NCBI GenBank assembly: GCA_964016885.1
Contig: OZ024746.1
Span: 1,984,001-2,048,000, forward strand
Source of the DNA: Eledone cirrhosa
Lineage: Eukaryota
Reading direction: 5' to 3'
DNA length: 64,000 nt
Within the stretch, counting starts at the first letter, position 1. Each line of letters starts with the position of its first letter. The translations under genes and the position numbers were made by a program. The notes under the pieces are model-generated. The model was not told where the DNA came from and ran no database searches. It saw only the letters and a program-made list of their open reading frames with translations. This document shows, piece by piece, positions 4,630-40,557 of the stretch.

Positions 4630-5468
4630 GAGAGAGATATTTGCCTACTACTTGCAGAGTGTCGAACGACTGCGCACAGGCTCCCAGATTGGTTACAAGC
4701 AGCCAGGCAATTCATACTGACGAATACTTCATTAGCTTTCTAATGGTCTTCGTGTGAAGGGAGATAACTTCACATATTAGTCAGAGTTATTTCCTCTTAG
4801 ACTAACTACTCATAAAGATTAATGTTTTTTTTTTCTTGCACATTAAAGGTTCGTTGACTTTGAGCTTAACCCACTTCGTTGGTGTTAAACGACTGGGAGT
4901 ACAAGACTTCTTGGACGAAATGCTCGCCAATCGAGGGGTTGGCCCCCAGCTCATTACTTTCAGCTGAGATGACCAGGGCAACATGAATATCAGGTATATC
5001 ATATACTGGTAGAGTTAAAGCTAAATAGTGAGTTTCTATTCATAACAATTTCACATACTCCAGTGCATATATGCAATAAAATCTCTTTCTGATTCAACCC
5101 AAATCTATTATTTCCAATTTCCAGCATTGGTTGGATAGATCTGTTAATTTAGACATTTTCAAGAATTACTGACATACTTCTTAAGCAAACTTTCAATTTA
5201 GAAAGTCTTAAAATAAAAAGACTGACAGTTTGTGAATAGGGAAATGTGTTAAGTTTGTGGGTACAAATAACTGTTAGCAACAAGTGGAACATCTAACCGC
5301 AAGACCAACGTTGCTGTCTCTGCTCTAACTTTAATTCTATAAGTCAATGAGATGTAACAGTTGATAAATAAGTGGTCTGCAATAGAATCTTGTGAACCTG
5401 ATAAAAAAAATGTATACTCAATATGTGAAAAATGCCATGGATCATTGGATTTCAAGATGTATCATTAA

Positions 5469-5535
5469 CCTTACCCAAAAAATCTTCAGAAATATTTGAC
5501 TTACCTGAAAAATAAAATAAAAAAGTAGTTAGAAA
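5469..5535 (-). promoter_or_regulatory. Candidate recursive splice site (ratchet point) with 30-nt RS-exon
   Basis: Minus strand reads CTAAC (5532-5528), then tactttttTATTTTATTTTT, then CAG|GTAAGTC (junction 5505|5504). A second donor TGG|GTAAGG lies at 5475|5474. Confidence 0.65.
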
Positions 5536-5637
5536 AAATAAAGTACAAATCACAAATTAGTAGAAAATGAATTCATTTATAAAGAAAAAGGAAAATAATT
5601 ATAAACTAGGAAATCATTCAATACAATTAAAATCAAA

Positions 5638-5833
5638 TTGCTTGCTATTGTATCTTCCGCAAAGGAGTTGCATTAGGTTGCTTGCTATTGTATCTTCCTC
5701 AAAGGAGTTGCATTAGGTTGCTTGCTATTGTATCTTCCTCAAAGGAGTTTCATTAGGTTGCTTGCTATTGTATCTTCCTCAAAGGAGTTGCATTAGGTTG
5801 CTTGCTATTGTATCTTCCTCAAAGGAGTTGCAT
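5638..5833. repeat. 40-bp minisatellite, ~5 copies
   Basis: Unit ttgcttgctattgtatcttcctcaaaggagttgcattagg. Confidence 0.95.
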
Positions 5834-6289
5834 CAAAACAGAGATTTAGTTAAAACAATTTTTCCAAACAAATATGAATACCTGGTTAAATTTGTTTCTA
5901 AAAGTGATTATGATTTCTTCATTGATGTGTGATAATATGTAGTATGAGGAAAGTTAGGGGATTCTTTGCCAAGGGGTTGCTGTAGCTAGATATCTGAAGC
6001 AAAATGTGATGTCTTTGGTTTAATGAGGTATACATGTGTTGGTGGGGATTATTGTGAAATGTTATCACCTCTTTTGTTATCTGTAGTATTTGAAAACCAG
6101 GTGTTAAGTGTATTGAAGTTCATCGTCTCCAATAATAGAGTTTTTGAGTGTTTAACTGGTGTGTATAGATATATATTCCCGTCCCACCCTTGCAAGCAGG
6201 GAAAAGCGGACGTAACATGATGATGATGATGATGATATATACACATACACGTGTGTGTATATATATATATATATACACACGACTTGATA

Positions 6290-6735
6290 AATTCCGACCT
6301 CACACACTTACACCTCTCCAAGACAATGTCACTGGACCGAGATCGTTGGCGCTACACAGTAATACAGAAGACCCGCCTTGCCTAAGTACAAAGCAAAACC
6401 TAGTCAGTAGGCACCTCTTAACAAAAATACACCCCCGTCCCACTACCCCACCCCCATCTACACCACCCCTTTCGATGTAAAGTTATGTTGGTACCACAAC
6501 ATCCAGTCCTAAACAAATGAAGTCGTGTAGGTGTCATGACAAAAAAACACAGTCCACGCTGTAATGTGGCCATGTAGGTAACACGGTAAAAACCTCCCAG
6601 TCCACACTGTAAACGTGGTTGGTTAGGAAGGGCATCCAGCTGTAGAAAACCCGCCAGATAGTCCTATACGAGCAAGACAACCAATCCAAACCCATGCTAG
6701 CGTGGATGATGGACGTTAAACGATGATGATGATGA
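6290..6735 (+). mobile_element. RTE LINE 3' end (ORF2 C-terminus plus downstream tail)
   Basis: DLTHLHLSKTMSLDRDRWRYTVIQKTRLA* followed by the 601-995 family sequence and a (GAT)n tail. Confidence 0.65.
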
Positions 6736-9699
6736 TACATACACACACACACACACACGTGTGTGTGTATGTATATATATATATATACATACACACACAC
6801 ACACACATATATATAAACACACACACACACACACACATACATACATATACACATATATATATATATAAGGGGAAATGCTGCATGTATTGCACTGCAGAAG
6901 TTTTTTTTTTTCGTTTTTGCTATATATATTTTTTGTATATGTTATGATTACAAAGTCTATTTTTGTGCCTGAAACTTATTTTTAACTGTAGACCTGTAAC
7001 AAATCTGTGACAAACCTGTAACAAACCTGTAACTCTGTGACATTGAGAAGGGAGATAAGAGTAGTTCCTATTTTCATAGCTGTTGCAAACAGAGTTATTC
7101 TGTAAACTTGTCTATTTTTCTGAATTATTTTATAAATGTTGTTTGGAGTATTATAAAGACTTTGTAAGACAGCTTTGTAAAAAATGTTAGGCCCTTTTTA
7201 ATGCAGAGTTGTAGCTTTTATTGTTTTCAGATGGTATTTGCCTATGCTAAAAAAATATTTCTGTGCCTTGAAAATGTATTATTCAACTAGTATTCTAGCT
7301 TTGAACATTGTATTCAGTATTAGTTTATTCTGTATATATAACCATTTTTTTAAAATGATTGGGCAGTATGTTCCAGGTTCCAATTGTCAAGGTTTACTCC
7401 CTTCCAGACCCACTTTGTAAGCCTTGAGATATGCAATTTTTGTGCATCCCAGGACAAGTCACAGGCCCATCACCAGCTTTTGCTGCATGAAATGGAGACT
7501 GCAATATATTTTTCAAACACATCTCTCTATTTAAGGCCTAAACCCTTGTTAATCCGCATGAAGCATGATGTGGAATGGTTCTTTTTTGTTCCTCTCACCA
7601 TATTGCAGTTGCAGTTTCGGTGATCTTATTTGCACCAGCCACAAATCTGGTACTTTCTCAGGGACCGAGAACAACCAAGGTCTTGACGGTGACCAGTGTG
7701 GAAAAGAAGCGGTCAGTTAAGTCCTAGTTTTTAATTATAATTAATTACTAAATAATAGACTTTTGTCTGATGCTCTAACAATTCAACCAATTCATCTCCT
7801 TACAATAAAATTGCCAGGATAAGGGGGGGGGGGAGACTTTGGTAAGTAGATTTAGATAACATTACTTTTAGTTTAGTACTTTTAAGTGACCTTGCAGATA
7901 AAATCATAACTGTTAGTCTACGAGTTCATATTTTTTAAACAACACTACAAACTGTTAAGTAAATACAATGAACTAAAAATATATAGCATAAATGACATCA
8001 TTTCAGAAGAATGCTACAACAATACTTTGCATTTAAGTGTTCTCTTTTGATTAATTTCAAACAATCTAACTACATCTCCAGTTATGCCAAATGCTCCAAT
8101 TCTATCAATTTAAGAACTTAAAGAATCTCTCACTTTAAAAAATACATTTTTGCTGTTTTGTATCACATTTATCCTATGTTCTGACTATACTGTTTCTACA
8201 CAGATTTTACACAATTATATTGAAACAATTTCTATTAATATGTATTATATGATGTGAGAGCTGACCTCAAATCACAGACTCACAGAGGTGATGACAAAGG
8301 ATTGCGACGTGTGGTGAGATGTCGGGCTGAGAAGGACCCATCCAACCCATGCAAGCATGGAAATAAAAGTGATGATGATCATCATCATTTTTTTAATGAC
8401 AAGATTTCACACTAGCGTAGACAAAAGAAATAAAAACAAATAAAAACAAAAGAAATAAAATGTTGTGAACTAAAATTGTTACAATGTTTTATTTTTTGAT
8501 AAAACAAGTTTATATAACCTAACAAAAATACTGCGGTAATTATGAATCTTGTTAGAATGCTCATGTTAGAGATCTTGATAAAAATGGTTCTCATAGTCAT
8601 TTAATTTATAACATTTTTTCATGTTACAAATACCATTTTAGTAAATCTTTAATTAATTAAAATACAAAGTATCTCATTATAAATACTGTAATGAAAGGGT
8701 TAAAACCTTCTTTGCAGGACCAGAATCTACTTCGATGGTAGTATGCACCTATCAAGGATGAAACAAATGCTACACATTTCTAAAGTACATCAAAATAAAA
8801 ACCTATCTAACTGAGTGTTCTCACTCTCAAAACTGTCTAAACACTTTACCCAACAGAATTGCAAATCTCAACAACTCCCTCTTTATCTATGTTTTCATTA
8901 GAAATTCAAGCTATTGCCCACAACTAACCAGTCTTTGCTGTAAAATTCATGATTGTTGTTCCTCTTCAGACTAAAATGTTAAAAATATAGATAAGATTTC
9001 ATGAAAAGAACTAAGATCTCTCATGTGCCAGAATCACTGGTGTAACAAATACCAAACACCATCAGGTCTCAGAATTATTGTATGGTTTCTTTAGAAGTAA
9101 TTGATATGGTCTCTAAGCCCCACAGATCATTTTGGGAGTGGCACTAAAGTTTGAAGTGAGGGAATAAAATTCAATATTTTTGTGAAAAATAAAAACGTCA
9201 GATTGTAATATTAGAAGTTTCAGTCTGTACAGTAGTGAAACAGATAGAAAAGTCAAAAGACATTCAACAATTAGAAAATAAAAGCAAGCTAAGTAAGATT
9301 CATTTGATGTGTAATACCATCTTGAGAATAAAGTGAAGTCCAAATATTGGGAAATGTATGCAATAGATACATTGTACCAATACAGACACATGTAAATAGA
9401 TGAATGATGTATGTTAGATGAAAAGTAGATGAGGTAGAAATTGATCAAGTAAAGGAAGAGAAGGTTGTTAAAATAGATTTTACTAGGATATATTTTACAC
9501 AGGAGATAAACATGTACTAAATACTATATATTTCAAACCCACAACTCAGTGACATTAAGTTGATGATAACAATAATAATAATTTTATTCATGCTGATAAA
9601 AATAACTTTTTTGTTTTGTTTTGTCTTTAACAATGAGAAAAGTGAACAATTAAATTTTCATTAAAAAAAAACCTAATCTAACTACCTTTTAACTCATGG

Positions 9700-10190
9700 A
9701 CAACATCCAATTAAAGTCTTCAAACTCACAATAAATGCTAGGTCTCGTAATTTCTCATGGTGACCTCATATATATTATATATAAGTCTGCTACAGTCCTC
9801 TTCAGAGCCAAAAGGTACTTCAGTTATGATCAGTTGCTGACCCTCAGCGAGGTCAAGTGCAACATAGAGTACTTTTCACATGTCAGAAATAGTGCTACTG
9901 TTAAACACACACAAACATTGTCTTACAGACATGCTGTTCTATCTCTCTGTTGCTTTTATTGCTACTACAACTGCTTCTGTTTCTTTAAAGCAGCAAACAA
10001 CATAACATTTCCAACACATCCAACACAACTGCCTCATCATTCAGATTGTCTCCCATTGATCTTTTCTCTATGGTAATAACCTTCAGAAACTCAAGTTAAA
10101 TTCAACAAATTCTTGGATCTCATTCCTCATAGTCTAACTTGTTGAGTGCTGCTCTTCCTTTCCTGATTAATTACTTTCAAATATACTACT
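9700..10190 (+). mobile_element. Highly degenerate CR1/L2/Jockey-group LINE 3' fragment
   Basis: KSATVLFRAKRYFSYDQLLTL...IEYFSHVR...LSYRHAVLSLCCFYCYY resembles the post-RT region of such elements. Confidence 0.5.
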
Positions 10191-10404
10191 GATAGTACAT
10201 TTTATGTCAACATTCAGTGTTCTACAAATAACTGTTAAAGAACAAACAAACTTAAAGATACTGTGCTATAATTGTCTAAGACTGAGAAACCTTTCATTAC
10301 ATCTTTTATTTTACAACTGACTAAGTTTAATAACACTCCTGACACAGAAAGTTTAATAACACTCACTTTTTAGGGAAACAAAAGACATTCTAATGATATT
10401 CTTA

Positions 10405-10540
10405 TCCTGCTGAGGTTAACTTTGCCTTTCATCCTTACAGGGTCAATAAAATAAAGTACCAGTAATGTACTGGGGTCGATTTAATCAACTTTCCCCTCCC
10501 AAAAAATTGTTGGCGTTGTGCCTAAATCAGAAACCAATAT
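10405..10540 (+). mobile_element. OR-like SINE fragment
   Basis: gaggttaactttgcctttcatcc...aaaataaagtaccagtaatg...gtgcctaaatcagaaacc. Confidence 0.7.
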
Positions 10541-10838
10541 TTATAATTGTTAGTCCATCAATATTTATTTAAATATTCAAATTCATTTTTTTTTTCAATA
10601 AATAATTATTTTTAAGGTATTAACAGATAATTATCTAAACCAGTCATGAACTGTGGCTCATTAGGTTTTCTGAATGGTATTCCTAAATAAAAATTACCAT
10701 GAATTATTTTACTATAGTGATGTATCTCATGTGACCCACTGATAGAAAAAAGTTGACTATGCCTGGTTTAAACAAGTCATTTTAAAAACAAATTAATATA
10801 CAATTCCTAGCTTCCAAGATGTATCTTCAGCAACAATG

Positions 10839-11059
10839 TACGAGGGAGTGCTGAAAAGTTCCTGGCTTGATCGCTGCTGCAGAGGCCTGGTTGGAAGCCT
10901 AACATTCTGAGTTATTTTTACAAGGCTTAGCAAAACTGAAGGACCGCTACAATAAATGTGTGAATCTGAGAGGGGAATATGTGGAATAAAATCATAATTA
11001 ACTGATCCTCCTGTATTTTCTTTTACCCAAAGCCAGGAACTTTTCACTACCTCCTTGTA
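10839..11059 (+). mobile_element. Internally deleted mariner element (MITE-like)
   Basis: TA-flanked TIRs CGAGGGAGTGCTGAAAAGTTCCTGGCTT / AAGCCAGGAACTTTTCACTACCTCCTTG. The interior encodes the mariner C-terminus LFLQGLAKLKDRYNKCVNLRGEYVE*. Confidence 0.9.
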
Positions 11060-11269
11060 TTCTTCTGGTATGAAACAGATGAAAGATAACTACTAGGCTA
11101 TCACAGAGTATCATTCCATTTAATATGGTATCTATTTCTAACAGTTAAAGTGAGACAATGTAAATAATGTGTTCTACACAAAAAGTTAATGTCAACTTAC
11201 AACCTGTGTACATTCTCTAACTTAGTTATTTGTTCATCATATCATTAAAAAAATCCTTTAAGAGAATAT

Positions 11270-11400
11270 ACGGCTCTTTCCATTCTGAGTTCAAATCCCG
11301 CCGAGGTTGACTTTGCTTTTCATCCTTACGGGGTCGATAAAATAAAGTACCAGTAATGAACTGTGTAATTGCTGGACTTGTGCCAAAAGTAGAAACAATT
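11270..11400 (+). mobile_element. OR-like SINE
   Basis: B-box GAGTTCAAATCC followed by the family body. Confidence 0.75.
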
Positions 11401-13515
11401 ATTATGATTTAGATCAAAATTTAACAACTCATCGTCAGCAGCCTCTCGTGTTCGAGCAGAGATCATCCTCCTCTCTCTCTAAACAGGATGGTGTGAGGGA
11501 ATCAGTTGGAGTTTATTCTGGACGGCAACTCCATCTTTCACAGCCTGCTTCTCTGGTTGAAATGATATTGGCTAAATTTCTATCTCATGCATTGATCAAA
11601 ACACCTGTTCTAGCTACATTTAAGATCAAAACACCTGTTCTAGCTACATTTAAAAAATATTTTGTTTTTACTGAATACTCTAAAATCATAGATAATTAAT
11701 GAAATATTAGAATTTTTATCAGCAGAATGCCAAATTAAATGGTTCCTTTCAAATGTTTGTGCCATGATAAAATGCACCCAGTAAACTCTGTGGAGTGGCT
11801 GCCAATCAGAGAGAATAATAGAGTAGACAAGATTCTTCAATCTTACCAACTATATGACCTCTCTAGTGCTGGTAACAGGATAAACTGTACTCTATGTAAA
11901 ATGGTTGGTGTTAAGCACCCAGTGGTAGAAATCAAGCCAAATATGAAACATATGAGCAAGATGTGATGCTCTGGTTGGTCTCATATCGTAATGTCCAACC
12001 TATGCCTAATTTCAATAATAACTACACTCAACTATTTAAGCAACATTTTTACAAAGCTGTAAGTAAAACTACATTCCAATCAAATAACAGACAGGTTTAT
12101 CTTAATGTAATTTATACTTTCAAATTCCAAGAAGACTACAAAAATAAGTTTAAAAGAATACATATAAAAACAAAATACACAAGGAATTATGAATACAACC
12201 TGCCAAATCTTTACTACAGGTAAATTCAATGCCGGGGAGTATGTAAGACTACATTATCTAATGTGACTTTCCTTAGTTAAAACAGGAGGATATGATTGGA
12301 GGGAATTTTGGCTGTTATTTCTAGCAGTTCAAGTAACCACATGAAGGTTCCCATATAGTGTAGTGGTGCTGATGTATATATGTAGTAGTTGTTCCAATCC
12401 ACTCAACTGACAAAAATTTGTTATTCCTGTAATTCAAACAGCCAGCTACATTACACTGGATCTCCCTGAGAACTATGTTAAAATTTTAATGGAATGCTCA
12501 GCCACTTTCACGCTTGTTGTAAACAACAGAGGTCCAACAACATATATAGTAGTGTGTGTGTGTGTGTGTGTATGTATGTGTATGTCAGCTAGATGCCCTT
12601 CCTGGTGCCAAAGGGAGTTTCGGTCTTGAAATTATGAGGATAGACTCAGTTGATTGAAGATTTTTTTTCCACTTGCCATATTCAGAATGCAAGACTATTT
12701 GTATAGACTTCATGTAGAGCATTCCTCACAGTTATTTTCACCTCTACCCTTTGAGATATTTAATGACTTTTCTTAATCAGAGTTAGTGGATTACAATTTT
12801 TAACCAAGTCTTCTGAAGGGATAAAAGTCAAAATAAGACTCCCTCTAACTTCAGATCAAGAAGTCATAACTAATAAATAAGATTTAGTCAAATCTCTACT
12901 AAAATGTCAAATAGCTTGGGCTGAGTAAAACAAAAAACATTTTACAGTGTGCGAAAGTCAAATTTCACAGGGACTCCGAATAATATATGGAACTCAATAT
13001 ATTACTTTACAACAAAGTGGATACCACATTATCAAACCAGTTCAGATTAAGTAATGGCATATTTCAGGAAGAATCACAATCATTTTTCCTGTTCTGCAAG
13101 AACTCATCTAATGAAACAAAATAAAGAAATGAAGAGAACAATTTTTCAATCCTTTAAATACCACAGATATTTTCTAAACAAGGTATCAATAAAATATATA
13201 TCTATTTTACCTTTTGTCTGTGTTACGTATGTCCACTAAGCATCAAATTTAGGGAGGTAAATAGGGAAGCATGAGCACAAAAATAAAGGAACCAAAGATT
13301 CTAAAAAAGACATCAAAGACAGGTAAAAAATAGTAGGAACAAGCTTCAGCAATGGATGACAGCACTTCAGGCTGGTTATAGTCTGCCAAATCTCAGAGAA
13401 ACTAAAAAGCAATGTAGACACCGTCATCCTCTTTAGGCAGATCATAAAAAAAAACAAAAATACTTCCAATTTCATATCGTGTAAAATTCCTATTTATGAA
13501 GAGTCAATATGTAAT

Positions 13516-13697
13516 AATTGTTTCTACTTTAGGCACAAGGCCAGCAATTACCCAGTGCATTACTGGTACTTTATTTTATCGACCCTGTAAGGATGACAGG
13601 CAAAGTCAACCTCGGCGGGATTTGAACTCAGATCGTAAAGGGACGTAACTATGCTGGAAAGCATGGCGTCCGACCCTCTACCGATACTGCCAATCCA
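13516..13697 (-). mobile_element. OR-like tRNA-derived SINE, near full length
   Basis: A-box TGGCAGTATCGG and B-box GAGTTCAAATCC on the minus strand. Near-identical to 39701-39887. Confidence 0.85.
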
Positions 13698-13882
13698 TGT
13701 AATAATAGTTATAAAGTAGAGTAGTTTATGCAAACATTTGTTCCAAGTGTCCTTTATTATCATATCCTAGGAATTATATACTAATATACAAATAACTATA
13801 CACTAATATACAAATATTCAAATTACCCAGATTCCAAACACATGAAAGGAAGCAATAATAGGATCAAAATCAAAAAGAGCAG

Positions 13883-14166
13883 ATGCTACTTCATGGAAGC
13901 CCAGATTAAACAAGACCCCTTTATATGCTACTTCATGGAAGCCCAGATTAAACAAGACCCCTTTATATGCTACTTCATGGAAACCCAGATTAAACAAGAC
14001 CCCTTTATATGCTACTTTATGGAAGCCCAGATTAAACAAGACCCCTTTATATGCTACTTCATGGAAACCCAGATTAAACAAGACCCCTTTATATGCTACT
14101 TCATGAAAGCCCAGATTAAACAAGACCCCTTTATATGCTATTTCATGGAAACCCAGATTAAACAAG
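13883..14166. repeat. 42-bp minisatellite, ~6.8 copies
   Basis: Unit atgctacttcatggaagcccagattaaacaagacccctttat. Confidence 0.95.
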
Positions 14167-14405
14167 AATACTTTATATTTGAATTTCCATATTAGTGAAA
14201 CCTTTATCAACTTACAACAATCAATGTAAAATATATATTTTTTATTCACTTAATATTTTCATTTCCAGATGCTCTCCCTTGTTTTTAGATAAGTATAGAG
14301 CATAGATATCTCTTTGTCTTCCGGATATCACATTACTCTCAGTAGATAATGTATACAAAAAAAACTTTGGGTTATGATCAAACACTCCATAGTCACAAGT
14401 TTTCA

Positions 14406-16910
14406 TCTATATATATATAATATAAACAAGAGATGTTGGTTGGTGGCTTCACGTATCACACAAAAAGGAAAACTGCCAATCAAAAAGTAAGTACACCAAT
14501 GGAATAAGGGTATACTCATAAGTTTATTGATACACATTTTATAATATCAAAGAAGAACCCGACTGTTATTTCTAGCAGGTTAGGAGACAACCACAAGGGA
14601 TTCTTTGTGTGTGCATTGTCAGCAAGGGATTTGAACACTGGTTTACACACACACATATAATATCTATATAAAGATATGTTTGTTGGTTGGTGGCTTCGTG
14701 CATCACACAAAAAGGAAAACTGACAATCTCTCATTATAAAATTAATGCTATTTAAAATTAATCTACGATGTATATTAATTTAGTTTTTTGAGGATATTGT
14801 CGTATGTTGTTACTGACCTAATTCTGATAGAGTGTCAACCTATCCTCTAGGCCTCCTATTGGACCATGTAATCAGCTGCTATTTTGCATTTATTTGTATT
14901 TTTTATACTGTTTTGTATTGTTTGTTTTTTCACAATATTTTCCAAGAACAATTTCAACATGCCATCAAAAGTCCTCTCATCTATCAGGAGATCTACCAGG
15001 TCCACCAAACAGATGAAATCTTCAAGTGAAAGATAAAATCAAAAACAAAATAGAAAAAGACTTAAGAGTAAAAAGGCAAGACAACAAGAACGACAATCTC
15101 AACACTGACATTCAGCTGAATATGAGACAGGAAACAGAAAGATTAAGTCAAGAAGAAAGATGATTGCAACTTTCTGAAACAGAAGCTGAGATGGAAAACA
15201 GATTAAGACAAGAAAAAAGACAATTGCAACAAATGGAGGCTGAATATGAAAACCACCAAGAAGCAATGAGAGTTGTGATGCAAACCCGACGAGCACAAAG
15301 GACTAATCAATGCAGAATAAACTGGCTAAGAGCTGCGTTTCAATATGATCCATCGACGAATTATAGAAATTATCATAAAGTCGCAATTGGTAGCATGAAC
15401 ATTACATGTGTTGCTTAGGGGAAAAGGTTCGACTTCCACTGTTAGAGGACCCTGCATACTGCTTACAGACCATACTAACGAAGCTAAACACTTCAGAAGT
15501 AATGTTATGATATCCCATGGAGCATACTGACTATGGTTATTTTACATTTAAAATCCAAAGACAATGCTACCATTTAATCAGCAGTTTACTCCCCCAGCCT
15601 AATGAGGAACCAAAATTCATTAAAGTTTACTTTTTGGGCAACAAACCTCTCCTCTGCAAAATCCTTGATGCTCACGTCAATTGTGAGTACAACACATCAG
15701 TTAAATCAATTAATTATGTTTGTAAATATGTCAACAAAGGTAGTTATATGGCAACTTTTACTATTGGTGGTGATAACCAACTAAATGAAGTTAAAACATA
15801 CCTAATAGGGAGATATATTTCTAGCAATGAAGCCATATGGAGACTCTTTGGTTTTGACATACACAATAGACACCCAGCAGCAGTGAACCTTACAGTCAAT
15901 TTGGAAAATGGTCAGAGGGTATATTACACTGAAGAAAATGCACAATTGATGGCTGAGTCTCCTCTAGATACAACTCTCACTGCTTTTTTTAAAGTTTTGT
16001 GAAGAAGATGCCTTTGCTAAAACCTTGCTTTATCATGAGATTCCCACATTCTACACATGGAATAAAAAGAAATGGAGCAGACGAAAGATAGACAATCATG
16101 TGGATGACTATGAAGACATCAAAGTGGCTCAATAGGAGGAGTTGACATGTTCCATCTTAAATTATTTGGCCTACTTGAAGACAGGGAATATTGGAAAAAG
16201 ACATTGGAGGAGGCAGCTGCCACATGCTTAAAAATGTTAGACAGCTCTTCCCTGTAATGCTCACTACATGCAATATTTCAGATCTCTTGAGCCTCTGGGA
16301 AAGCTACAAGAAAGACTTGTAGGAAGATATCTAGCACAGGATCAAACTTCAAAACACTGGCTTTATGTAGATTTTTCTCTAACAATTTATAATTGTTTCT
16401 ACTTTTGGCACAAGGGCCAGCAATTATCCCAGTGCATTACAAGTATCAACCATCTGAGTAAAATTGGCCGGTCCCTTAAAGGTTGTGGTTTACCAGAACC
16501 TGAGGACATAGCTGCATACTATATGGCACAGGATATATTAAGGGAGACGAACTATGACATCAACAAGCTTACATAATATGTCAATGAAAATGAAGAGAAG
16601 CCGATTGAAGATCAAAGAATTGCTTATGAAAAAATATTGACCAGTATCGACCAGAATGAAGAAGGCCTTTACTTCTTGGATGCTCCAGGAAGAACTGGTT
16701 AAACCTTCATAATAAGCTTCATTTTGGCAAAGTAAGGCAGCGAAAACCAAGTGCTTTGGCTGTTGCATCAAGTGGCATTGCTGCTACCTTACTCCTAGGG
16801 AAGATTTATACACATGTCTCCACTGACAAAGTTGAAGAGGAAGTTATTCATTATCCTGCAGAGGTCCTTAATAGTCTGGAACTTCCTGGGCTTCTTCCAC
16901 ATATTATATA
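14406..16910 (+). mobile_element. Degenerate, internally deleted Helitron (Rep-helicase pseudogene)
   Basis: Rep-region motifs TFKIQRQCYHLISSLLP, PLLCKILDAHVNCEY..SVKSINYVCKYVNKG, GRYISSNEAIWRLFGF, HPAAVNLTVNLENGQRVYY, TTLTAFF. PIF1 motifs FLDAPGRTG*TF, AVASSGIAATLL, YPAEVLNSLELPGL. A|TCTATATA 5'-terminus-like sequences at 14406 and 14663. Confidence 0.92.
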
Positions 16911-17205
16911 ACTCTTAACATCCTGTATGAAATCACATTAATAAAACAGTCTTGAAAAGTACAAAACATTACTACAACTGCATCACATTAAACATTAAAG
17001 TCTGATATTGAACATTTTCAGTTATCTTATCCACTAAGATACAAATATTTGAATTAACAAACCTGTTTATAAATATTTTGTATTAAATCATTACAGGTTG
17101 TTAAAAGTTAAAAGACCCAGAATAAAGAATTTATAAAAACAGTACAACATTGAATTGAATAATGTAGTATAGTGTAATGTTTCTCTGTTGCAAGTTCAAA
17201 TCACC

Positions 17206-17433
17206 TTAACCCTTTAGCATTTAAACCGACCATATCCGGCCAAAGTTTTCTCACCTCTTTCTGTTCAAATTGGACCTAACTAGCCATGCATACTGATGTT
17301 AAGGTATTGTTCACAAAATAAATAATATCAAAATCTCATAGATTCAATATCATGTGAGATAATATTTCAGATAAAGTCCTTACTGCTAAAATACAATAGA
17401 GAATATAGAGTAATTTAAATGATAAAGGGTTAA
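17206..17433. mobile_element. TTAA-flanked MITE, family A, nested in an old OR-like SINE
   Basis: TIRs as above. The flanks rejoin as agttcaaatcacc-TTAA-gatcaactttacctatcatcc (SINE B-box and body). Confidence 0.85.
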
Positions 17434-19649
17434 GATCAACTTTACCTATCATCCCTCTTGAGTCAATAAAATACCAGTAATATAATTAACATCAAGTATC
17501 ATCTGCAGGAGAAACACCATAAATCACTTTAATGCTGCCCATGGTTAAATACAGGTATGTACATGATGAAACAAAGCCAAAGTAGGATTTGAACTCAAAA
17601 TACAAAGAGCCAGAACAAATTCCCTAAAGTATCCTGTATGGTACCTCACTAGTTCACCACCCTAAATTAGTACTTCATTAGCACTGAAAGGATAAAAAAC
17701 AAAAGTTGACCTGAGTGAAGTTTGAACTCAGAATGCCTGGCATTTCATCCAATAATCTAACCTACTAGTAACATAGTGAGGTTAAGTCAATCAAATGTTA
17801 TTCCCTCCCACTAAAACTAGTTCAATGTCTAGTAAAAGATATCAGAAGGTATAGTTAAATGTACATCATTTAAAGAGGAAATGGGGAGGAATAATGACCT
17901 TGAAATTACATTTGATTGAGTGCCAGTATTATTAATTATTTTAAGCTTCAGTTTTTTATTTGAATCAGGAAACTAAACAGTTATCACTTGTCACTTTACA
18001 GCACAACTATCATCACCATTATCATGGGAACTTTACACTAGATTTTGTTACATTTGGCAAATGACTCCCTTTGGTGGCTATTTTACATCAATTTAAATTC
18101 TATTTTCCATACTTGCATGAGTTAGTCGGGTTGTCACATTCTGAGGCTAGACTGGTTAGGTGACTATGTCTTATTCATATATTCCGGTTTTTTTTTTTGT
18201 TTTTGTTTTTTGGTGGAGGGGGGGGGGGGGTACACCCTTTCCTAATGCCAACCACATTGCAACATGCGCTACAAGTACTACCATTTTACAGGGTGGAGTA
18301 GGTGTTTGTTTGTTTGTTTTTTTTTGTTTGTATTTTATCATAGTACTAACACTGCCACCTTACAAAGTGGGTTGGATGTATTTTATCAGGACACCAGAAC
18401 TACCCCATTACAACTCTAGGGTGTTCTTTGCTTCCACAGCCAGGCTGAAGAAAGCAGAGATGAAAATGAGGGGCTGCAAGTTAAAAAAGAAATTCAATGA
18501 AACTAAATTTTAATCAGGCAAGGAATGCATGAAATTTACAGCTCACTCTTCTGTAAGTTTAGCTGGCCATCTAGGAGATTGTGTTTTAATGATAGAGGCC
18601 CCAATCTTTTCATGAAAACCAACAGGAAATGGAGCACTATGTTTATGTTTACTGTTCAACTGTAAAAGGTGAGGAGGCTTGAAAATCTAATGCAACAAAT
18701 GATGAATATACCAGAATTTATATTTTCGATTAAAACAAAGAGAAAACCAAATAAAGCAATAACATTTCTATGGCCTGATGTACATAGAATGCTTGTAAAC
18801 AATTAAAAACTATTTATAACTCTTGAACCATTCATTCTCACAAGTATGACAGACAATTTCAATTGCCACTCACTATTATTTAGGAAATACACAGTTCATG
18901 GAAGGTAGGAGAAATGTATTTATCTGATTTTTTATAAATTATATTAATAAATATATCGTATCATGATCATGATCAAACAATGGAAAGAGAAGTCAAATCA
19001 CAACTCATAAAATGAAAAAAAAAGATTTCTGTATTTTTTTCCTTGTACAAATTAAGAGTACCATGTCAGTCTTCTGAGAAGCTGATAATTGGAGGCACCA
19101 CTGTATCAAGCTCAAATTAGTCCAGTCAGTGAGTTATATTGATTGTACAATCCAAGATCCAATCTTTTCAATTACTCTTGGTATACCCTAATTCTTCAGC
19201 TGCTATATGGTGTTTGAGGTTCTGACACTTATTTTCAGCCATGGTTTCAGGCTATGCTAACAAGTCCAAACCATTGAAACAGTTTTGCAGTGTCTTACAT
19301 TGGATACCTTCTAGATAGTTTGTTGGTATTGAGATATATGCAAAGTTTTGCATGAGCTGAGTTGTTTTTATTGGCTATCTGAGCACCATAAAGTCAGCAG
19401 TCAAGTACACAGTTAACCCAGTAAGATCACCAAAAAGAGTCAATTTGATTGGCAGTGACACCATTGTTTGAATACCAGTTCAATAGAACAAAGTTTACAA
19501 AACCTTCCCCGTCGCTGCAATGTTCACTGAAGGTCTATCTATTGTATCACCTTTTTCTGTGGGGACATTCAATAGACTTGCAGCCCTTCCCAAGTGAACT
19601 ACATATTACACAATCTATTGATATGTCAACTTACTGTACTCAGCTTTTT

Positions 19650-19815
19650 GTCTGGTTTTATGAATTTGTTGGTGACTAATCAAACCAACCTTGGAAAAAC
19701 ACGACCACAGATACTACAAACTAAGTTTACCCACCTCTACTTTACAAATTGTGTATTTTCCTGTTGCTTGCTTAAATTCTACACCATTCTTCAACCATTT
19801 CCTCCATACCCAGAC
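19650..19815 (-). mobile_element. Degenerate RTE-like LINE C-terminus with C2H2 finger
   Basis: WRKMVEE...; LVCSICGRVF/SKVGLISHQQIH across a frameshift. Confidence 0.55.
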
Positions 19816-20072
19816 ATAGGTTTATATATATATATATATATATAAAATCTGAGAGAGAGACATATGCATGTGTGTAGTTATAATTAGACACTACATGTTC
19901 ACTCCAAGTAGAAAGACCCCATGAGATCATTGTTCGGTTAGCTTACACAGATGAGTTCAAATCCTTCCAAGGGAGAAGGAAAGGCTATACCAGTCTGATT
20001 TCTTGAAATCCGGATTTTAAAAACTATTTGTGACAACCAATAGCTTTAATGGCTTATCCATGACTATGGGCT

Positions 20073-20120
<48 letters not shown>

Positions 20121-20526
20121 AGAAATAGACAGTAATGTGTTGTCTATCAGAAATACAAATGATACAGTTAAGCTTACAAACTGCTTTTACATTTATCAGT
20201 ACTCATTGAACTCATAAGCAGAAAGCTATTAAAATGTTTCCATTTGTATTTAAAATAATTTTAAAAATTATAATTTGCAAAGCTTCAATTGACATTAAAA
20301 TTTGTAATGTAGATGAAATATTACTTGATAAGGAACATGTTCATTTGTACTAATCTAACATAGTTTATCAAACTTAAACTATGAAGTACTGATATGATCT
20401 TTCCATATCTATAAGTCCTTGTTTTAAACACTTAAGTGTCAACAATTTAGATAATTTTTGTTAATTTATTTGTTATTTCTCTTGTTTTCAGGAAACAAAT
20501 ATTTCCAGTACCAGGTATAAAATGAC

Positions 20527-20741
20527 TTAACCCTTTAGCATTTAAACCGGCCATGTCCGGCCAGAACTCACCTCTTTCTGTTCAAACCAGCTGTAACTGG
20601 CCGCTCATACCTACATTAAGGTATTGTTCTCAAAATAAGTAACATCAAAATCTCGTACATTCGAAATAATTATGTAAGATAAAGCCTTTACTATGAAAAT
20701 ACAATAGTAAATATAGAATAATGTAAATGCTAAAGAGTTAA
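20527..20741. mobile_element. TTAA-flanked MITE, family A
   Basis: TTAA CCCTTTAGCATTTA ... TAAATGCTAAAGAG TTAA. Confidence 0.85.
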
Positions 20742-21239
20742 AGTAATATATTCTTGCCAGAAGGTCAATATAAATATCCCCACAAAGAATATGTAATTAT
20801 TTTAGTAATCAAACTCTTTGGATGTTGATGGGTGAAATTTACCTTCTTTTGCTAGTCATTGTAAAAACATTCTCACTCATCAACAGCAAGGCAAGTACCT
20901 CCGTCAACAATTAGGAAGAAGGGGGAGGGGGTGCTAGCTCTAAAAAATTGTATTTACTTGAAATGAATATAATTAAACAACACCCTCCTCCAACCCTCTA
21001 TATTTTGGGAAGTGACAAATATTGTTAAACCAGAAAACAATGGCAACAGTATTTCATTGTATATTATTCTATAATGTAAGTATGTGTGAGTACATAAAAT
21101 ACATCCTCAATAACCATTTCCTTGAATGTGTTAAACACAGATTAGTCACACCTGTTTCAACTATCAACCTTACAGAGATGTAATAACAGTGTTATGTGTT
21201 AAATACAAATGCTAATTAATAAACACTACTCTAGATAAT

Positions 21240-21525
21240 GGAGGCACGTGGCCTAGTGGTAAGGTTGTTGGAATCAAACCCACAACACTGTTGTGGGTTT
21301 GATTTCTGAGGTTGGGTTGTATGTTGTGTTCTTGAGCAAAACAATTTCACAGTGCTCCAATATACTCAACTGAAAATGAATACCAGCAACAGTTGGGGGG
21401 GGGGGGGGGTAACCCTGCAATGGACTGGAGTCCTGTCCAGGGAAGAATCTTGTACTCTGTCACTTCACGCCATGAAACCAGTATAAACACCAACCTGACG
21501 AGCCTCCTGGTTTGAGACAGACTTA
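21240..21525 (+). mobile_element. tRNA-derived SINE (second head type)
   Basis: GGAGGCACGTGGCCTAGTGGTAAGG ... GGTTTGATTTC ... gtgttcttgagcaaaac ... aaccctgcaatggactgg. Related copies at 22260-22409(-), 25560-25710(+) and 33390-33660(-). Confidence 0.75.
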
Positions 21526-21939
21526 AGATATTAAACCACATCTTTTGTATTTATATTTACACCTTACTAATAAACATTAGTAGCAATCCAAGCTGGCCTA
21601 GTTGTTGACCATTCATATCCTATATTAGTGTTGTTATATTGAGTGTGGCCAAAACTAACTTCATCACATATTTATTCTCTGCCACAAATACTTGGCACTG
21701 TCCATACAGAGTCCCCTATATCCATATCACACAGCTTCCCCTTATACATATAACTAATGCCTTTAATACCTAACTACTTCCTCATTTCTTTTGTGTTCAG
21801 CCAGCATGATCTTTAGGGTCCCAACAATTACAGGTCTCATTTAACTATTTTATGTTAAACCTTTTGATACCAAACTGCCTGAAACCACCCAAGCTCTTCA
21901 ATATATGACTATATTTTAGAGTGACTATATTTATCTAAA

Positions 21940-22861
21940 CATCTTCCATCATAGCTTTATATAACTGTTATTAAGTTATATTCCGAACACCAACTTAATA
22001 ATACAAATATGTTACATGTAAATTGATTGAAGATCATAGGCAATGTCTTTCATTAGAAATATGGTAATGAAAGGGTTAACTCTTAATTTGTCAATCTTTC
22101 ACCAACTGACACAAATACTTTTAACTGCCAATTCATGACTATACATCACTATTCACAATATAGTCTTTTCTCTATGTCTTTGATACATGCCTAATTGTTG
22201 TTTTACTCACAATGACTGCTATTGGGGAAATGTGATAAACGAGATGTATTAAAAAACATTACTGGTATTCATTTTTAGCTGAGTGTACTGGAGCAACGTG
22301 AAATGAAGTGTTTTGTCCAAGAACACAACACACAAACTAGCTCAGGAATCAAACCCCCGACATTATGATCATAAGTCCAACACCCTTACCACTAGGCCAC
22401 ACACCTCCACAATGATTCATAAAGACAATTGTAATTGCTATTCATAATGAATAACTCCAATTTTAGTAACAATGTGAGTTTATAACTGCAAAAGCATGAC
22501 TACAGACAATAGCACTTGAACTCTCCATATTTGTTTTTACAGAAGAATATTTTCTTCTTCACTCACTTATTCCTTGGAGGTCCATGGGGGGGAAGAGCCC
22601 TCAAGGTACTCCTTTCAGCAGGTCCTGTCAGAAGCAACTGTTATCCATCTTGCCTAGAGGTCTACCTCTGGGTCTCCTGCTAGTTGGTTTTGCCAGTAAA
22701 AACCTATCCAGCAATTCTTTCCTGAGACATTCTAACCACATCTCCATAATAAAGGAGCTGTGATCTCTCAATTCAGAGAAGTAGCGGCCTTACCTAGAGT
22801 GGCTTTATCTGGAGTAACTCTAATCCCCAAGCTACACACTCTATAGAGTAACATTACTCCA

Positions 22862-22897
<36 letters not shown>

Positions 22898-23691
22898 ATC
22901 ATTGTTTAATGTCTATTTTCCATGCTTGTATAGGTTAGACAAGTTGTCACATTCTGAGACGAAACCAGTCAGGTGACCTTGTTTTGCTCATAAGTTGTTT
23001 CTGGCTTGCTTTCTATGTATACTGTGTATACTGGAAGCATTTTATCATGGCTCCGGCTCTACCACCTTACAGGTAGAATTGGTTGCTCTTTATTGTGGCA
23101 GTAACACTACGCCATTACAACATTAAGGTGATCATTAGCTCCTTAGCCAGGGAACAGTTTTACAACACGAGAAAGAAAAACAACAGATATATACTAGGGT
23201 TTTTTTTTCCTGGAGAACATACTACTTAACATCCAACATAGACTGGGTATTAGTAACAGTATAGTAAAAACCAAATGGACTCAGAGACAGAGAACAATCT
23301 GGAAAATGAGGGTGTGGAAATATGGGTTCAGAAACATTTTATGAGCCATGAAAAAAGTTTCCAGCATATACTGAAATGTGGTTGGGGACAGGGAAATCAT
23401 CCAGCCACAAAAAAAAACAAGCCAAAAGTAGATATGAACAAGATATGGTCAACTGACTTAACTAGCCTCATACATGACAGCCTATCTAACCTATACAACC
23501 ATGGAAAATAGACATTAAATGGTAATGGAGATATGACAAGAACAAAAAAGAAATACAAGGTGACTCTAAAAAAAAAAAATGGTCCTGTACATGTTTTGTG
23601 CCACTGATTATTCATTTTTTAGCCAATCAACCTTAAATTGCAGGATATGGCAGATACAATGTCTGAGAAGACAAGATCCCAATGGAAATTC
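21940..23691. repeat. Left arm of a large inverted duplication
   Basis: Reverse complement of 24201-26029. The mirrored ORF pairs 23275-23511/24381-24617 and 23397-23615/24277-24495 confirm this. Confidence 0.97.
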
Positions 23692-23819
23692 ACTGAAAGG
23701 AGTACCTTGAGCCCTCAAGGTACTCCTTTCAGCGAGTCCTGTCAGAAGCAACTGTTAACCAGCTGAGCTTATGGATATTACCCAACCCATCTTGCCTAGA
23801 GGTCTACCCCTGGGTCTCC

Positions 23820-24338
23820 TGCTTTTGTTTAGTCTTTATCCTGTAGGGATACTTCTAAGACCCCCTTTGACAACCCCTATGCAAGTTTCTGTGGAGAAAC
23901 CCTAGGATTGGCTTCTCCTGTGCAGTGATCATTTTGGGATCTGTTCAATTGACTCTTGAACCATATCAATAACTTCCTGTGTACATTTCCTGTGTCATCC
24001 AGGGGGGGGGGGGGTAGGATGGTTCTCTGAAATTGTATTAAGGTTCTCTACTGTCCCATAGGTCTCAAACTTCTTCACCCAGTCTTGTATATTGTCTTTG
24101 AAGGAAGATTTGTCTGTTTCCAAAAATGCATGAAATTTGCTTTTGGACCTGCTTGTGTGAGCCACACACATAGTAGTTTCACACTGAAAATCCAGTGCTG
24201 GAATTTCCATTGGGATCTTGTCTTCTCAGACATTGTATCTGCCATATCCTGAAATTTAAGGTTGATTGGCTAAAAAATGAATAATCAGTGGCACAAAACA
24301 TGTACAGGACCATTTTTTTTTTTTAGAGTCACCTTGTA
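23820..24338 (-). pseudogene. Tc1/mariner DD41D (rosa-like) element, 5' end and transposase N-terminal half
   Basis: TA-CAAGGTGACTC terminus, then QWKFQHWIFSVK, IQDWVKKFETYGTVEN, TQEVIDMVQESIEQIPK*SLHRRSQ, YPYRIK (HTH region of this family). Confidence 0.8.
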
Positions 24339-25023
24339 TTTCTTTTTTGTTCTTGTCATATCTCCATCACCATTTAATGTCTATTTTCCATGGTTGTATA
24401 GGTTAGATAGGCTGTCATGTATGAGGCTAGTTAAGTCAGTTGACCATATCTTGTTCATATCTACTTTTGGCTTGTTTTTTTTTGTGGCTGGATGATTTTC
24501 CTGTCCCCAACCACATTTCAGTATATGCTGGAAACTTTTTTCATGGCTCATAAAATGTTTCTGAACCCATATTTCCACACCCTCATTTTCCAGATTGTTC
24601 TCTGTCTCTGAGTCCATTTGGTTTTTACTATACTGTTACTAATACCCAGTCTATGTTGGATGTTAAGTAGTATGTTCTCCAGGAAAAAAAAACCCTAGTA
24701 TATATCTGTTGTTTTTCTTTCTCGTGTTGTAAAACTGTTCCCTGGCTAAGGAGCTAATGATCACCTTAATGTTGTAATGGCGTAGTGTTACTGCCACAAT
24801 AAAGAGCAACCAATTCTACCTGTAAGGTGGTAGAGCCGGAGCCATGATAAAATGCTTCCAGTATACACAGTATACATAGAAAGCAAGCCAGAAACAACTT
24901 ATGAGCAAAACAAGGTCACCTGACTGGTTTAGTCTCAGAATGTGACTACTTGTCTAACCTATACAAGCATGGAAAATAGACATTAAACAATGGTGTGTGT
25001 GTGGTGTGTGGTGTGTGGTGTGT

Positions 25024-25106
<83 letters not shown>

Positions 25107-26029
25107 TGGAGTAATGTTACTCTATAGAGTGTGTAGCTTGGGGATTAGAGTTACTCCAGATAAAGCCACTCTAGGTAAGGCCGCTACTTCTCTGAATTGA
25201 GAGATCACAGCTCCTTTATTATGGAGATGTGGTTAGAATGTCTCAGGAAAGAATTGCTGGATAGGTTTTTACTGGCAAAACCAACTAGCAGGAGACCCAG
25301 AGGTAGACCTCTAGGCAAGATGGATAACAGTTGCTTCTGACAGGACCTGCTGAAAGGAGTACCTTGAGGGCTCTTCCCCCCCATGGACCTCCAAGGAATA
25401 AGTGAGTGAAGAAGAAAATATTCTTCTGTAAAAACAAATATGGAGAGTTCAAGTGCTATTGTCTGTAGTCATGCTTTTGCAGTTATAAACTCACATTGTT
25501 ACTAAAATTGGAGTTATTCATTATGAATAGCAATTACAATTGTCTTTATGAATCATTGTGGAGGTGTGTGGCCTAGTGGTAAGGGTGTTGGACTTATGAT
25601 CATAATGTCGGGGGTTTGATTCCTGAGCTAGTTTGTGTGTTGTGTTCTTGGACAAAACACTTCATTTCACGTTGCTCCAGTACACTCAGCTAAAAATGAA
25701 TACCAGTAATGTTTTTTAATACATCTCGTTTATCACATTTCCCCAATAGCAGTCATTGTGAGTAAAACAACAATTAGGCATGTATCAAAGACATAGAGAA
25801 AAGACTATATTGTGAATAGTGATGTATAGTCATGAATTGGCAGTTAAAAGTATTTGTGTCAGTTGGTGAAAGATTGACAAATTAAGAGTTAACCCTTTCA
25901 TTACCATATTTCTAATGAAAGACATTGCCTATGATCTTCAATCAATTTACATGTAACATATTTGTATTATTAAGTTGGTGTTCAGAATATAACTTAATAA
26001 CAGTTATATAAAGCTTATGATGGAAGATG
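24201..26029. repeat. Right arm of a large inverted duplication
   Basis: As above. About 7 point differences plus an expanded (GT)n tract at ~24990-25104. Confidence 0.97.
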
Positions 26030-26089
26030 CCCACGGTAGATTAAGAAAATTTGGGTTGTTTTCAATCTTCAGCATTTTTTCAGCCATAG

Positions 26090-26587
26090 ACTTTCTCTTC
26101 GTCGTATCAGCCCACTTTCACTTAGAGGGGAAGAACAACTTTAAGAGCAGTATGTTCTGGGGGTCAGAGAAACCCCCAGAAGAGGCTGTGAAACCTCTCC
26201 ACTTGGCTAAATATACCATCTGGGTTGCCATTTCTGAGAGAGGGTTGACTGGCCCATTCTTCTTTGAAGAAAATGGTGTCATTGCTACAATCACAAAGGA
26301 ACACTATGTAGAGGTCCTGCAAAACTTCAAAAGGAGTTACAGACCATGTACCCATCTGTAATAATTTCTGGTTCCAGCAAGACAAAGCAACCCTCACACA
26401 TCCAATGAGGCATGGGAATGGCTAAAAAATAACTTTGGAAATCGTGCGATTAGTTTGAAGACTGATTTTGAGTGAGCTCCAAACAACTCTGATTTAAGCA
26501 GGTTTCTTTCTTTAGGGTTATCTGAAGGATAGGGTGAATGTCAACAAACCCAGTACTATTACTGAATTAAAGGAAAACATCAGACAA
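26090..26587 (+). pseudogene. Tc1/mariner DD41D (rosa-like) transposase C-terminal half
   Basis: SAHFHLEG..FWGSEKP..PLH..KYTIWVAISERGLTGPFFF; WFQQD..HTS..W.P..SDL; GYLKDRVNVNKPSTITELKENI. Spacing from QQD is consistent with 41 aa. Confidence 0.9.
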
Positions 26588-29500: not shown

Positions 29501-30339
29501 TCATGGATGGGTGTATGAAAAGTGTAGTGGGAGTTAAGAGGGTGATATAAAAATTTTGAGGGATTTACTAAAATTATTAATTATTTCATTACTAAGATAG
29601 TAACTTAATGCAAGGTTCTTATATAAATTTATGTTGGAAGATTTTAATTTAAATTGGAAACCTTTAAAATGAGTGGTTTTATTTCATTAGAACCAGAACT
29701 GGTTTTGGCCCAATTAATAACTAAAGGATTAATTTTGGTCTGGTTTAAAAGGAAATATTTCTACAGTAATGACGCAGCATGTAATAATATCAGAGCCTTG
29801 ATGTTATTAGATATAAAAGAAAATCACTAGTTTTCTTAATTATCAAAGCAGATTTCAATACTGAACCCATAAGGAAAAATAACAAATATTGAAACAAGTT
29901 TAGGAATTACTATATATACTCATATAAAAGCTGAGAAATATGTAACAAAAAACAATTGAAGGTAAAATTCAGGGTCAGTTTATATTCAAGGTTATAAAGT
30001 AGTGTCTTTCTTAAGATATATGGTGACATATATCTTAGGTTAATTAGAATTAGTTTAATGGTTTCTTCATATTTTAATATAATGGTAGCCTAACTGTTTC
30101 ATGTTTAAGCAACCAAAACTTAAAACTTTATCAAACTTGGTCCTAAAAACTGACCTCTTGCAAAGATACCAAGAAAATCAATTTTTTTTTTAATGTATTG
30201 TTCACAGAGTAGTTCCACAGCATGCCCAAAAAAATATCTAGATAAACTGGTGATGATATATAACATATCTTTTTTACTATAGTAGCACGGTTGCACAAAC
30301 ATAATACAGACACTTCCAAACATCTGATTCCTGAAATAT

Positions 30340-30560
30340 TTAACCCCTTAGCATTTACATTACTCTATATATACTATTGTATTTGGTAAAGGTTTTATCT
30401 TACATATCTTGCATAATATCGAATCTATGAGATTTTGATATTGTTTATTTTGAGAACAATACCTTAACTTGAGTATGAGTGGCCAGTTATGGCCAATTTG
30501 AACTGAAAGAGGGGAGAGAGTTCTGGCCAGATATGGCCGGTTTAAATGCTGAAGAGTTAA
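30340..30560. mobile_element. TTAA-flanked MITE, family A
   Basis: TTAA CCCCTTAGCATTTA ... TAAATGCTGAAGAG TTAA. Confidence 0.85.
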
Positions 30561-31335
30561 AATATAAACTCTAGAATCAAAAGATCAGACATAACTACTT
30601 TAGCTGTACCCTAGTTATTCCCATCCATTATCTATATACAGGTGACATTTCATACACTGAACAATACTTTAATATCCAGTATCTCCAATTCACTTAAACT
30701 CAGTGATTCCCTCAAGTTTATACAACCAAACATAATATATTCAATTCCTTTCTTTCTAGTTACCATGTTGCCTGTTACTAGTCTACATCTGTTGTGTAAC
30801 ACAGGTTTGACATTCATATAACTCGGGGGGGGGGGGGGGGGGTTTCTCTGTTACCAAGAGATAATACTTATCTGAAAAATGTCACTACACCTCATAGTAT
30901 GGCCACCATATTACTAACAAAAGTGAAAGAAGGACATGACTGATAACACCATCTTCACTGGTGAGTTGGGGTAAGATTAGTAAAGCTAGTTTGAAGTTTA
31001 TATTTAGAAGCTAGCCTAAGTAACAACTAAAAGTGAACCTGAGAGAAATTCTCCACAACTATATCCTTGCTATCTCATGCTGTCAAATAGTACCCAAATA
31101 ACCAATCCCCTTTTCTCACTAAATATCTTGTGCATCATTTAATTACACTATCTACAGAAAATTAATTTCATATAATTTCCTATTCTGCAGGTGGAGTACA
31201 ACCATTTTTTCTTGTTATTTATACAGCTAACCCTACATTTAACTTATACACTTACATACCAACACCTTAATACTTACCTTTCAGATTTCTTACTAAACTA
31301 CAGATTGTGCAACTTTGTCGAATACCATCTTATCA

Positions 31336-33297: not shown

Positions 33298-33392
33298 GAT
33301 CATGGGTTCCTTTTGTATTCACCTTCTCAGATCATGGGTTCCTTTTGTATTCACCTTCTCAGATCATGGGTTCCTTTTGTATTCACCTTCTC
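33298..33392. repeat. 32-bp tandem repeat, 3 copies
   Basis: Unit gatcatgggttccttttgtattcaccttctca. Confidence 0.9.
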
Positions 33393-33848
33393 AAAGTCTG
33401 TCTCAATCCAGGATGCTCATCAGGCCAGTGCTTATCCCAGTTACATGGCATGAAGTGACTGAGTACAAAACTTTCCCCTGGATAGGACACCAGTCTATCA
33501 CAGGGTTTCACCCCCCCCCCCCCCCCCCCCCAGCTATTGCTGGTACTCATTTTCAGCTGAGTATACTGAAACAACATGAAATGAAGTGTTTTGTTCAAGG
33601 AATTGAACCCACAACATTATGTCAGTACAACACCCTTACAACTATGCCATTCACCTCTACTAACTAAACAAAGACCCCACTGCACTAAACAATATTATTC
33701 ACATATTTCCAAAACATGTTTACAAGAAAACAAAATTATATATGTGACCTTGGAAAATATTTTAAATACACTTGTGTATAAGAAGAAATGTTTCATTAAT
33801 CAAATGCTAAGTACAAATATGTACTGAAGTAAAGAGCAAGTGCAACAA

Positions 33849-40552: not shown

Positions 40553-40557
<5 letters not shown>

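Follow-up and report, generated by a model that had tools for sequence, protein, structure and literature searches.

A candidate recursive splice site in the long first intron of a RASSF1/5-like gene of Eledone cirrhosa, with two paralogues elsewhere in the genome

A fused splice acceptor and donor deep in the first intron of a RASSF1/5-like gene of Eledone cirrhosa is, in the reading that we favour with moderate confidence, a recursive splice site whose cryptic exon is normally skipped and which was dispersed when a small element was duplicated. The site lies in the 64,000-nucleotide stretch of DNA analysed here (the window; coordinates without a prefix are window positions). Its anatomy and its position in the gene exceed chance, and on sequence grounds the candidate is probably functional. 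It shows the sequence features of ratchet points and RS-sites, a class itself defined by features of RNA, and we infer that the intron would be removed stepwise.

The signals follow one another on the minus strand of the window. A CTAAC branch-point motif (5528..5532) has its A at 5529, position -25, and a U-rich tract with a 101-nt AG-free zone (5508..5606) lies upstream of the acceptor. The fused acceptor and donor, CAG|GTAAGT (5499..5507; CAG at 5507-5505 and GTAAGT at 5504-5499), places the junction of the candidate ratchet point between 5505 and 5504. A second donor, TGG|GTAAGG (5469..5474), has its GT at 5474, exactly 30 nt past the junction, and closes a predicted cryptic RS-exon of 30 nt (5475..5504) that is stop-free in the phase-1 frame only, where it reads KSNISEDFL. 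An earlier reading of this DNA from its letters (the sequence-only reading) had described the branch motif and tract with CAG fused to GTAAGT, the second donor 30 nt later and the stop-free RS-exon, all of which we saw again. Its remark that the site lies in non-repetitive sequence did not hold, as ~450 bp around the site has two paralogues in the genome.

The host gene was identified from its first coding exon (43101..43755, minus strand), an ORF that encodes the first half of a C1 domain (Pfam C1_1, E 1e-06), ends inside that domain in phase 1 and lies in a CpG-rich promoter zone. Its homologues in molluscs are named ras association domain-containing protein 1, and the exon is single-copy in the genome. 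The exon-1 donor, AAC|GTAAGT (43095..43100, minus strand), has its GT at 43100. Local tblastn placed exon 2 near G000:C6:1921851, beyond the window and 67.7 kb downstream of the site, and five further RASSF exons within 200 kb downstream. The host gene and orientation assumed by the sequence-only reading held: the site is on the sense strand of RASSF1/5-like intron 1. This intron measures ~105.2 kb without an internal N gap, and homologous proteins splice exon 1 straight to exon 2. The predicted first intron segment (5505..43100, minus strand) is 37,596 nt long, in agreement with the earlier figure of ~37.6 kb from the exon-1 donor.

Splice signals were scored with a rough matrix of our own making, which limits the weight that the scores lend to the recursive reading. 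On this matrix the fused site reached 16.5 bits and ranked first among the 426 AG|GT of the intron, with a runner-up of 6.7 bits, which bears out the earlier impression that it is the only such strong AG|GT there. It also ranked first among 1,903 AG|GT on both strands of 264 kb, its acceptor is one of the two strongest in the intron, and the window's minus strand holds no other YAG|GTAAGT. No AG|GT as strong arose in 80 simulated introns (40 order-2 and 40 order-5 Markov). We also considered a tandem mini-intron, running from GTAAGT to an AG ~110 nt on, and found it unsupported: the acceptors available scored 3.5, 3.7 and 7.3, near a background of ~1 per kb scoring at least 4.

In the proposed mechanism, the acceptor and the second donor would first define the 30-nt cryptic exon that they enclose. 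Exon 1 would then be spliced to the AG of the fused site, removing 37.6 kb; this joining would regenerate AAC|GTAAGT, a 9-mer identical to the exon-1 donor, which would be spliced to exon 2 with removal of the remaining 67.7 kb. Since the regenerated donor would be reused to reach exon 2, the mRNA would keep no trace of the first step. The second donor scores 4.2 bits and the regenerated donor 3.6 on the rough matrix, so partial inclusion of the in-frame 30 nt is possible as a leak. Removal of 37,596 nt as one unit is part of this prediction. The length of the second segment argues against the recursive reading, as 67.7 kb exceeds the longest fly segment given in the available text of a Drosophila survey, 63.6 kb (10.1101/006163). 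In three sequencing runs from one sample, single contigs without joints spanned the stretch; the runs behave as DNA and are possibly the source of the assembly. One RAD-seq run (1 of 3) had 0 reads over the stretch, and a metagenome pattern scan for the site gave 0 matches.

An acceptor-like tract before a perfect donor could also belong to something more ordinary. GTAAGT could be an ordinary donor whose non-coding exon ends in a U-rich stretch and is missing from annotation; a 5'-UTR exon belonging to a long isoform that starts 8.5 kb downstream is one possibility, and a perfect CAG|GTAAGT donor would suit such an exon. A candidate start for that isoform is present: an alternative first coding exon of ~2.7 kb and ~890 codons begins 8.5 kb downstream of the site (G000:C6:1980971-1978313, minus strand; L010 6971-4313). 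However, both known first exons have a CpG-rich promoter zone and no such zone was seen at the fused site; the long isoform already has a donor of its own close upstream, as well as its own CpG-rich zone; and an acceptor is what the branch motif, the tract and the 101-nt AG-free zone indicate. We therefore regard the UTR-exon explanation as very improbable.

The alternative first exon is annotated as an isoform in Octopus and Argonauta. It matches the N-terminal start of all nine octopod proteins retrieved, eight of which join exon 2 directly, and exon 1 with its C1 half was present in none of the nine. The octopod C1-containing isoform may be unannotated or may have been missed by our search. 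The alternative first exon gives a C1-less RASSF isoform like human RASSF1C; in the accessible text on human RASSF1, isoform C lacks the C1 domain and arises from an internal promoter (PMC2586335).

A 261-bp query from the window found, by genome search, a copy at G000:C6:62.57 Mb (copy 2) that is 74% identical, and a copy 2 query found another at G000:C7:31.79 Mb (copy 3). Together they define a dispersed element of ~440 bp (5215..5654 of the window, minus strand) whose homology spans ~-150 to +290 around the junction, is best from -150 to +100 and reaches 72-80% identity in the core. TAAC at the branch position, the tract and CAG|GTAAGT are kept in all three copies, with AG-free zones of 101, 74 and 53 nt, and each fused site is the best AG|GT within the 264-400 kb scanned around it. 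A donor-like site recurs at +29 or +30: the window has TGG|GTAAGG, copy 2 has TTG|GTGAGG and copy 3 has TGG|GCAAGG. The 30-nt segments of copies 2 and 3 have stops in all three frames, and small changes in the window copy removed a stop present in both paralogues. The ends of the element are obscured by a 40-bp tandem repeat of ~4.5 units on the 5' side in the window (5640..5830, minus strand) and by unrelated TTAA-type miniature elements adjoining copies 2 and 3.

The element probably has few copies in the genome. An upstream 25-mer searched with three mismatches gave three matches, namely the two known copies and one unrelated sequence, and this return of no new copy is what points to a small family. 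The core pattern, also with three mismatches, gave seven matches in the genome, two of them real, with three for the control and no new copy, and a three-copy profile found no further copy in 1.27 Mb of loci, in five large regions or in two further regions. The count of three is a lower bound, as the genome DNA search cannot see copies that lack an extended exact match: queried with the downstream part of copy 2, it returned that part alone and missed the two known copies, so copies without the core may be hidden.

As to what the element is, no terminal repeat (by eye) and no ORF were seen in the three copies found, and Rfam gave no match inside the element. Three other possibilities were tried and set aside. 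A structured RNA was not indicated by fold z-scores of -0.65, 1.18 and 0.29, by folds that differ among the copies or by a covariation term of +0.23. A high-copy repeat was rejected when many search matches were traced to miniature elements, unrelated to this one, that border copies 3 and 2, and duplication of the gene was rejected as the source of the copies, exon 1 being single-copy and copy 2 lying near a forkhead gene.

In the recursive reading, an old duplication or transposition would have dispersed the segment. A lone strong acceptor in a sense intron would create a harmful pseudoexon; because the acceptor is fused to a donor, the element would be self-erasing and tolerated in sense inside introns. 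Copy 2 shares its strand with a forkhead gene (Pfam E 1.4e-29) that appears FoxN2/3-like from its motifs. The first coding exon of this gene lies 79 kb downstream of the copy; 187 kb upstream of the copy is a CpG-rich stretch, a putative first exon, which ends in a consensus donor. An exon scan found no coding exon between the CpG-rich stretch and the forkhead first coding exon, and AT skew around copy 2 is of the minus-strand type, in the same direction in 20 of 20 bins. Copy 2 is thus probably in sense within a ~266-kb 5'-UTR intron of this gene (G000:C6:62760886-62494368, minus strand), a location in which stops in the 30 nt would not matter. This probable intron is followed by ~81 kb in which no exon was detected, up to the one completing the forkhead domain, and the ESM Atlas gave no match for the forkhead N-terminal piece.

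Copy 3 fits the recursive reading less well. No host exon was found within 400 kb on either side (exon scans of 800 kb), only transposon ORFs; the copy sits among transposon remnants, strand skew is inconsistent and the second donor is a GC. It may be dead, or it may lie in an intron longer than the scan range. When checked on the RASSF region, the exon finder recovered five RASSF internal exons, and most of its 34 top candidates there were noise.

These observations raise the alternative that the site is an inert fossil, left over from an element that dispersed or from a piece of a gene that was duplicated; its splice signals would have served the source locus, and the spliceosome would now ignore the copy here. 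The existence of paralogues and the failure to find a host gene for copy 3 in 800 kb speak for this, and our search itself favours copies with an intact core. At -18..+24, 36 of 42 columns are invariant in all three copies; the near flanks have 118 of 208 such columns and the part beyond +100 has 56 of 190. The peak of invariance at the junction had a permutation p of 0.009. Because the copies had been found via long exact words, neutral trios were simulated, with substitutions only, conditional on detection and on the motif in the window. Both other copies kept YAG|GTAAGT in 11-14% of neutral trios, so retention of the motif alone is weak evidence; it fits the neutral decay expected of a fossil and counts to that extent against the recursive reading. 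Both longest words spanned the junction in about 3% of trios and the core reached 36/42 in 1-4%, giving p of about 0.01-0.04 after ascertainment.

The peak of invariance thus remains unusual after correction, and the sequence comparison gives moderate evidence for selection on the core. Further points oppose the fossil. As the strongest acceptor|donor of the intron, and in sense, the fused site would be hard for the spliceosome to overlook. No terminal repeat, ORF or Rfam family marks it as transposon debris, and the family returned by the upstream 25-mer is small. We judge an inert fossil to be unlikely.

Fused sites of this kind are rare in the genome. T7CAGGTAAGT has 15 matches, 11 of them independent, which is not clearly above a Markov expectation of 5-9 and hence indicates rarity. 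The broader pattern T7CAGGT-VVV-T has 93 genome matches, or 88 independent ones after two local clusters were collapsed. Donor consensus follows T7CAGGT in 19 of these 88, against 8.7 expected from local sequence (p 0.0008), a roughly two-fold excess; the AAG ending alone accounts for 11 against 3.7 expected. This excess speaks for the recursive reading, but it is small and can include ordinary UTR-exon donors. We examined the flanks of two of six other RS-like sites. The CAG|GTAAGT at C6:77.74 Mb (G000:C6:77742279) shares only its splice core with the element; the 100-kb stretch that holds it has no convincing exons and shows sense-type skew in 10 of 10 bins, a point in favour of the recursive reading. 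The site at C1:112.29 Mb, of equal score, showed no sign of a host gene in 100 kb, a further point against reading such motifs as recursive. Together with the one at G000:C6:77742279, strong unrelated acceptor|donor fusions with long U-tracts at L142, L144, L148, L149 and L156 are candidates for recursive sites.

The frame of the 30 nt raises another alternative. In C1 domains, both of the cysteines that flank the exon junction bind one zinc. Inclusion of the 30 nt would preserve the reading frame and add ten residues between these two zinc-binding cysteines, so that a regulated microexon included in some tissue would change CxxC to C-x12-C and disable the C1 zinc site. A C1 switch of this type had been suggested by the sequence-only reading. 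In its favour, the segment is in frame, it is stop-free only in this copy, which lies in a coding intron, and its second donor scores about the same as the regenerated donor, or slightly above it (4.2 against 3.6 bits). Partial text of published work offers some parallels, as donor competition decides inclusion in flies (PMC8605326), neural microexons have a long AG-free zone and a CUAAY branch (PMC8797185) and in human RASSF1D exon 2 gains four residues at its 5' end (PMC2586335).

However, the peptide was present in none of 136 proteins surveyed, although none of the nine octopod proteins is a C1 isoform. Two residues between the cysteines are kept in 97 intact C1 domains, including two cuttlefish-cluster proteins; the rest of the 136 comprise one odd count from a non-C1 isoform, 31 with the second half only and seven with no match. 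The site also differs from eMIC exons in having a strong acceptor and no UGC nearby (the 100 nt upstream contain no TGC), a C1-less isoform is already made from the alternative first exon, and by our estimate a stop-free multiple of three would arise by chance about one time in six. The stops in the paralogues, in all frames, and the C1 homologues that keep CxxC make a conserved C1-switch microexon unlikely. A regulated microexon of any sort we consider improbable.

The recursive reading finds close counterparts in flies. Ratchet points with cryptic RS-exons are described for Ubx, kuz, Bx and luna in the portions of the Drosophila literature available (10.1101/006163; PMC8605326; PMC6110457). 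Like the present site, they combine a fused AG|GT, a long first intron and a short cryptic exon closed by a second donor, and their branch point lies 21-36 nt upstream, compared with -25 here. The segments of fly introns are shorter, averaging 18 kb with a maximum of 63.6 kb in the text available, whereas here a single site would divide 105 kb (10.1101/006163). The present site differs further in that its cryptic exon is in frame, it belongs to a family of paralogous sites and it is known from its sequence. The Ubx microexons mI and mII (51 nt) resemble the predicted RS-exon in being short, frame-preserving and begun by a donor, with donor competition setting the outcome; in contrast to the paralogues here, which have stops, and to a peptide found in no protein examined, they are described in the available text as ultraconserved coding sequence (PMC8605326).

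Vertebrate RS-sites (Sibley et al. 2015, taken from citing papers including 10.1101/2024.12.11.627982) are likewise rare, fixed in position, confined to very long introns and defined through an RS-exon, and recursive sites are rare in vertebrates and lungfish too in the available text of the latter source. The small genome-wide excess seen here resembles this sparse state. The host here is instead a mollusc, and sites in unrelated genes share common ancestry. Human RASSF1 A, C and D offer a parallel at the gene itself, with a C1 domain split over exons 1 and 2 and, in isoform D, residues added at the 5' end of exon 2; RASSF1D adds four residues, whereas the segment in Eledone is separate, 67.7 kb from exon 2, and would add ten (PMC2586335, partial text).

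Our literature search found no study of molluscan recursive splice sites; most subscription papers and supplementary site tables were outside its scope. Cephalopods and recursive splicing co-occurred only in the reference list of one paper, and no study of a transposon or repeat origin of recursive sites, or of paralogous recursive sites, was found among titles and abstract openings. If confirmed, the site would be new for molluscs, and its paralogous origin would be unexpected. Cephalopod introns are very long, their removal is untested in the literature searched, and this locus supplies exact junctions to look for. If the copies work, they show that a recursive site can originate when a ready-made cassette is duplicated, without having to be built up one point at a time, and the three copies form a natural comparison: one in a coding intron, one in a UTR intron and one that lacks a host. 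Should they prove inactive, the case shows that duplication can leave a textbook motif behind as a fossil.

We put forward tentatively a bolder version of the recursive reading, in which recursive sites are mobile: a self-erasing cassette would have been copied into the giant first introns of the RASSF and forkhead genes and would act as a ratchet in both, and the RASSF copy would have drifted to an in-frame exon able to leak into the C1 zinc knuckle. If true, a mobile cassette would represent the first molluscan recursive splicing together with a traceable origin of such sites.

Several other features of these loci were recorded. A near-perfect palindrome of 4 kb lies in intron 1 (21953-26015); identity in its arms is 100% over 942 nt and 99% over 803 nt, and the spacer is 509 nt. 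Either an inverted duplication of recent date or an artefact of the assembly could account for it; if genuine, it could give ~1.7 kb of double-stranded RNA in the pre-mRNA, a likely substrate for A-to-I editing. Broken ORFs that look like remnants of Helitron helicase, mariner transposase and LINE sequences, together with a (TA)n field of 5 kb and a tandem array of 33-bp units, occupy window ranges 15511-16576, 25993-26361, 49178-50474, 56800-57900, 51000-56200 and 61367-62416. In the second intron segment, on the sense strand, a 26-bp tandem repeat (G000:C6:1955045-1955565) carries ~21 AG|GTGAG units and no pyrimidine tract. At G000:C18:19909172-19913541 (L150-L154), five repeat copies in both orientations each carry T7CAG|GTAAGT followed by a tRNA-like GC-rich head, and by this arrangement the repeat appears as a second case of a repeat bearing a fused splice signal.
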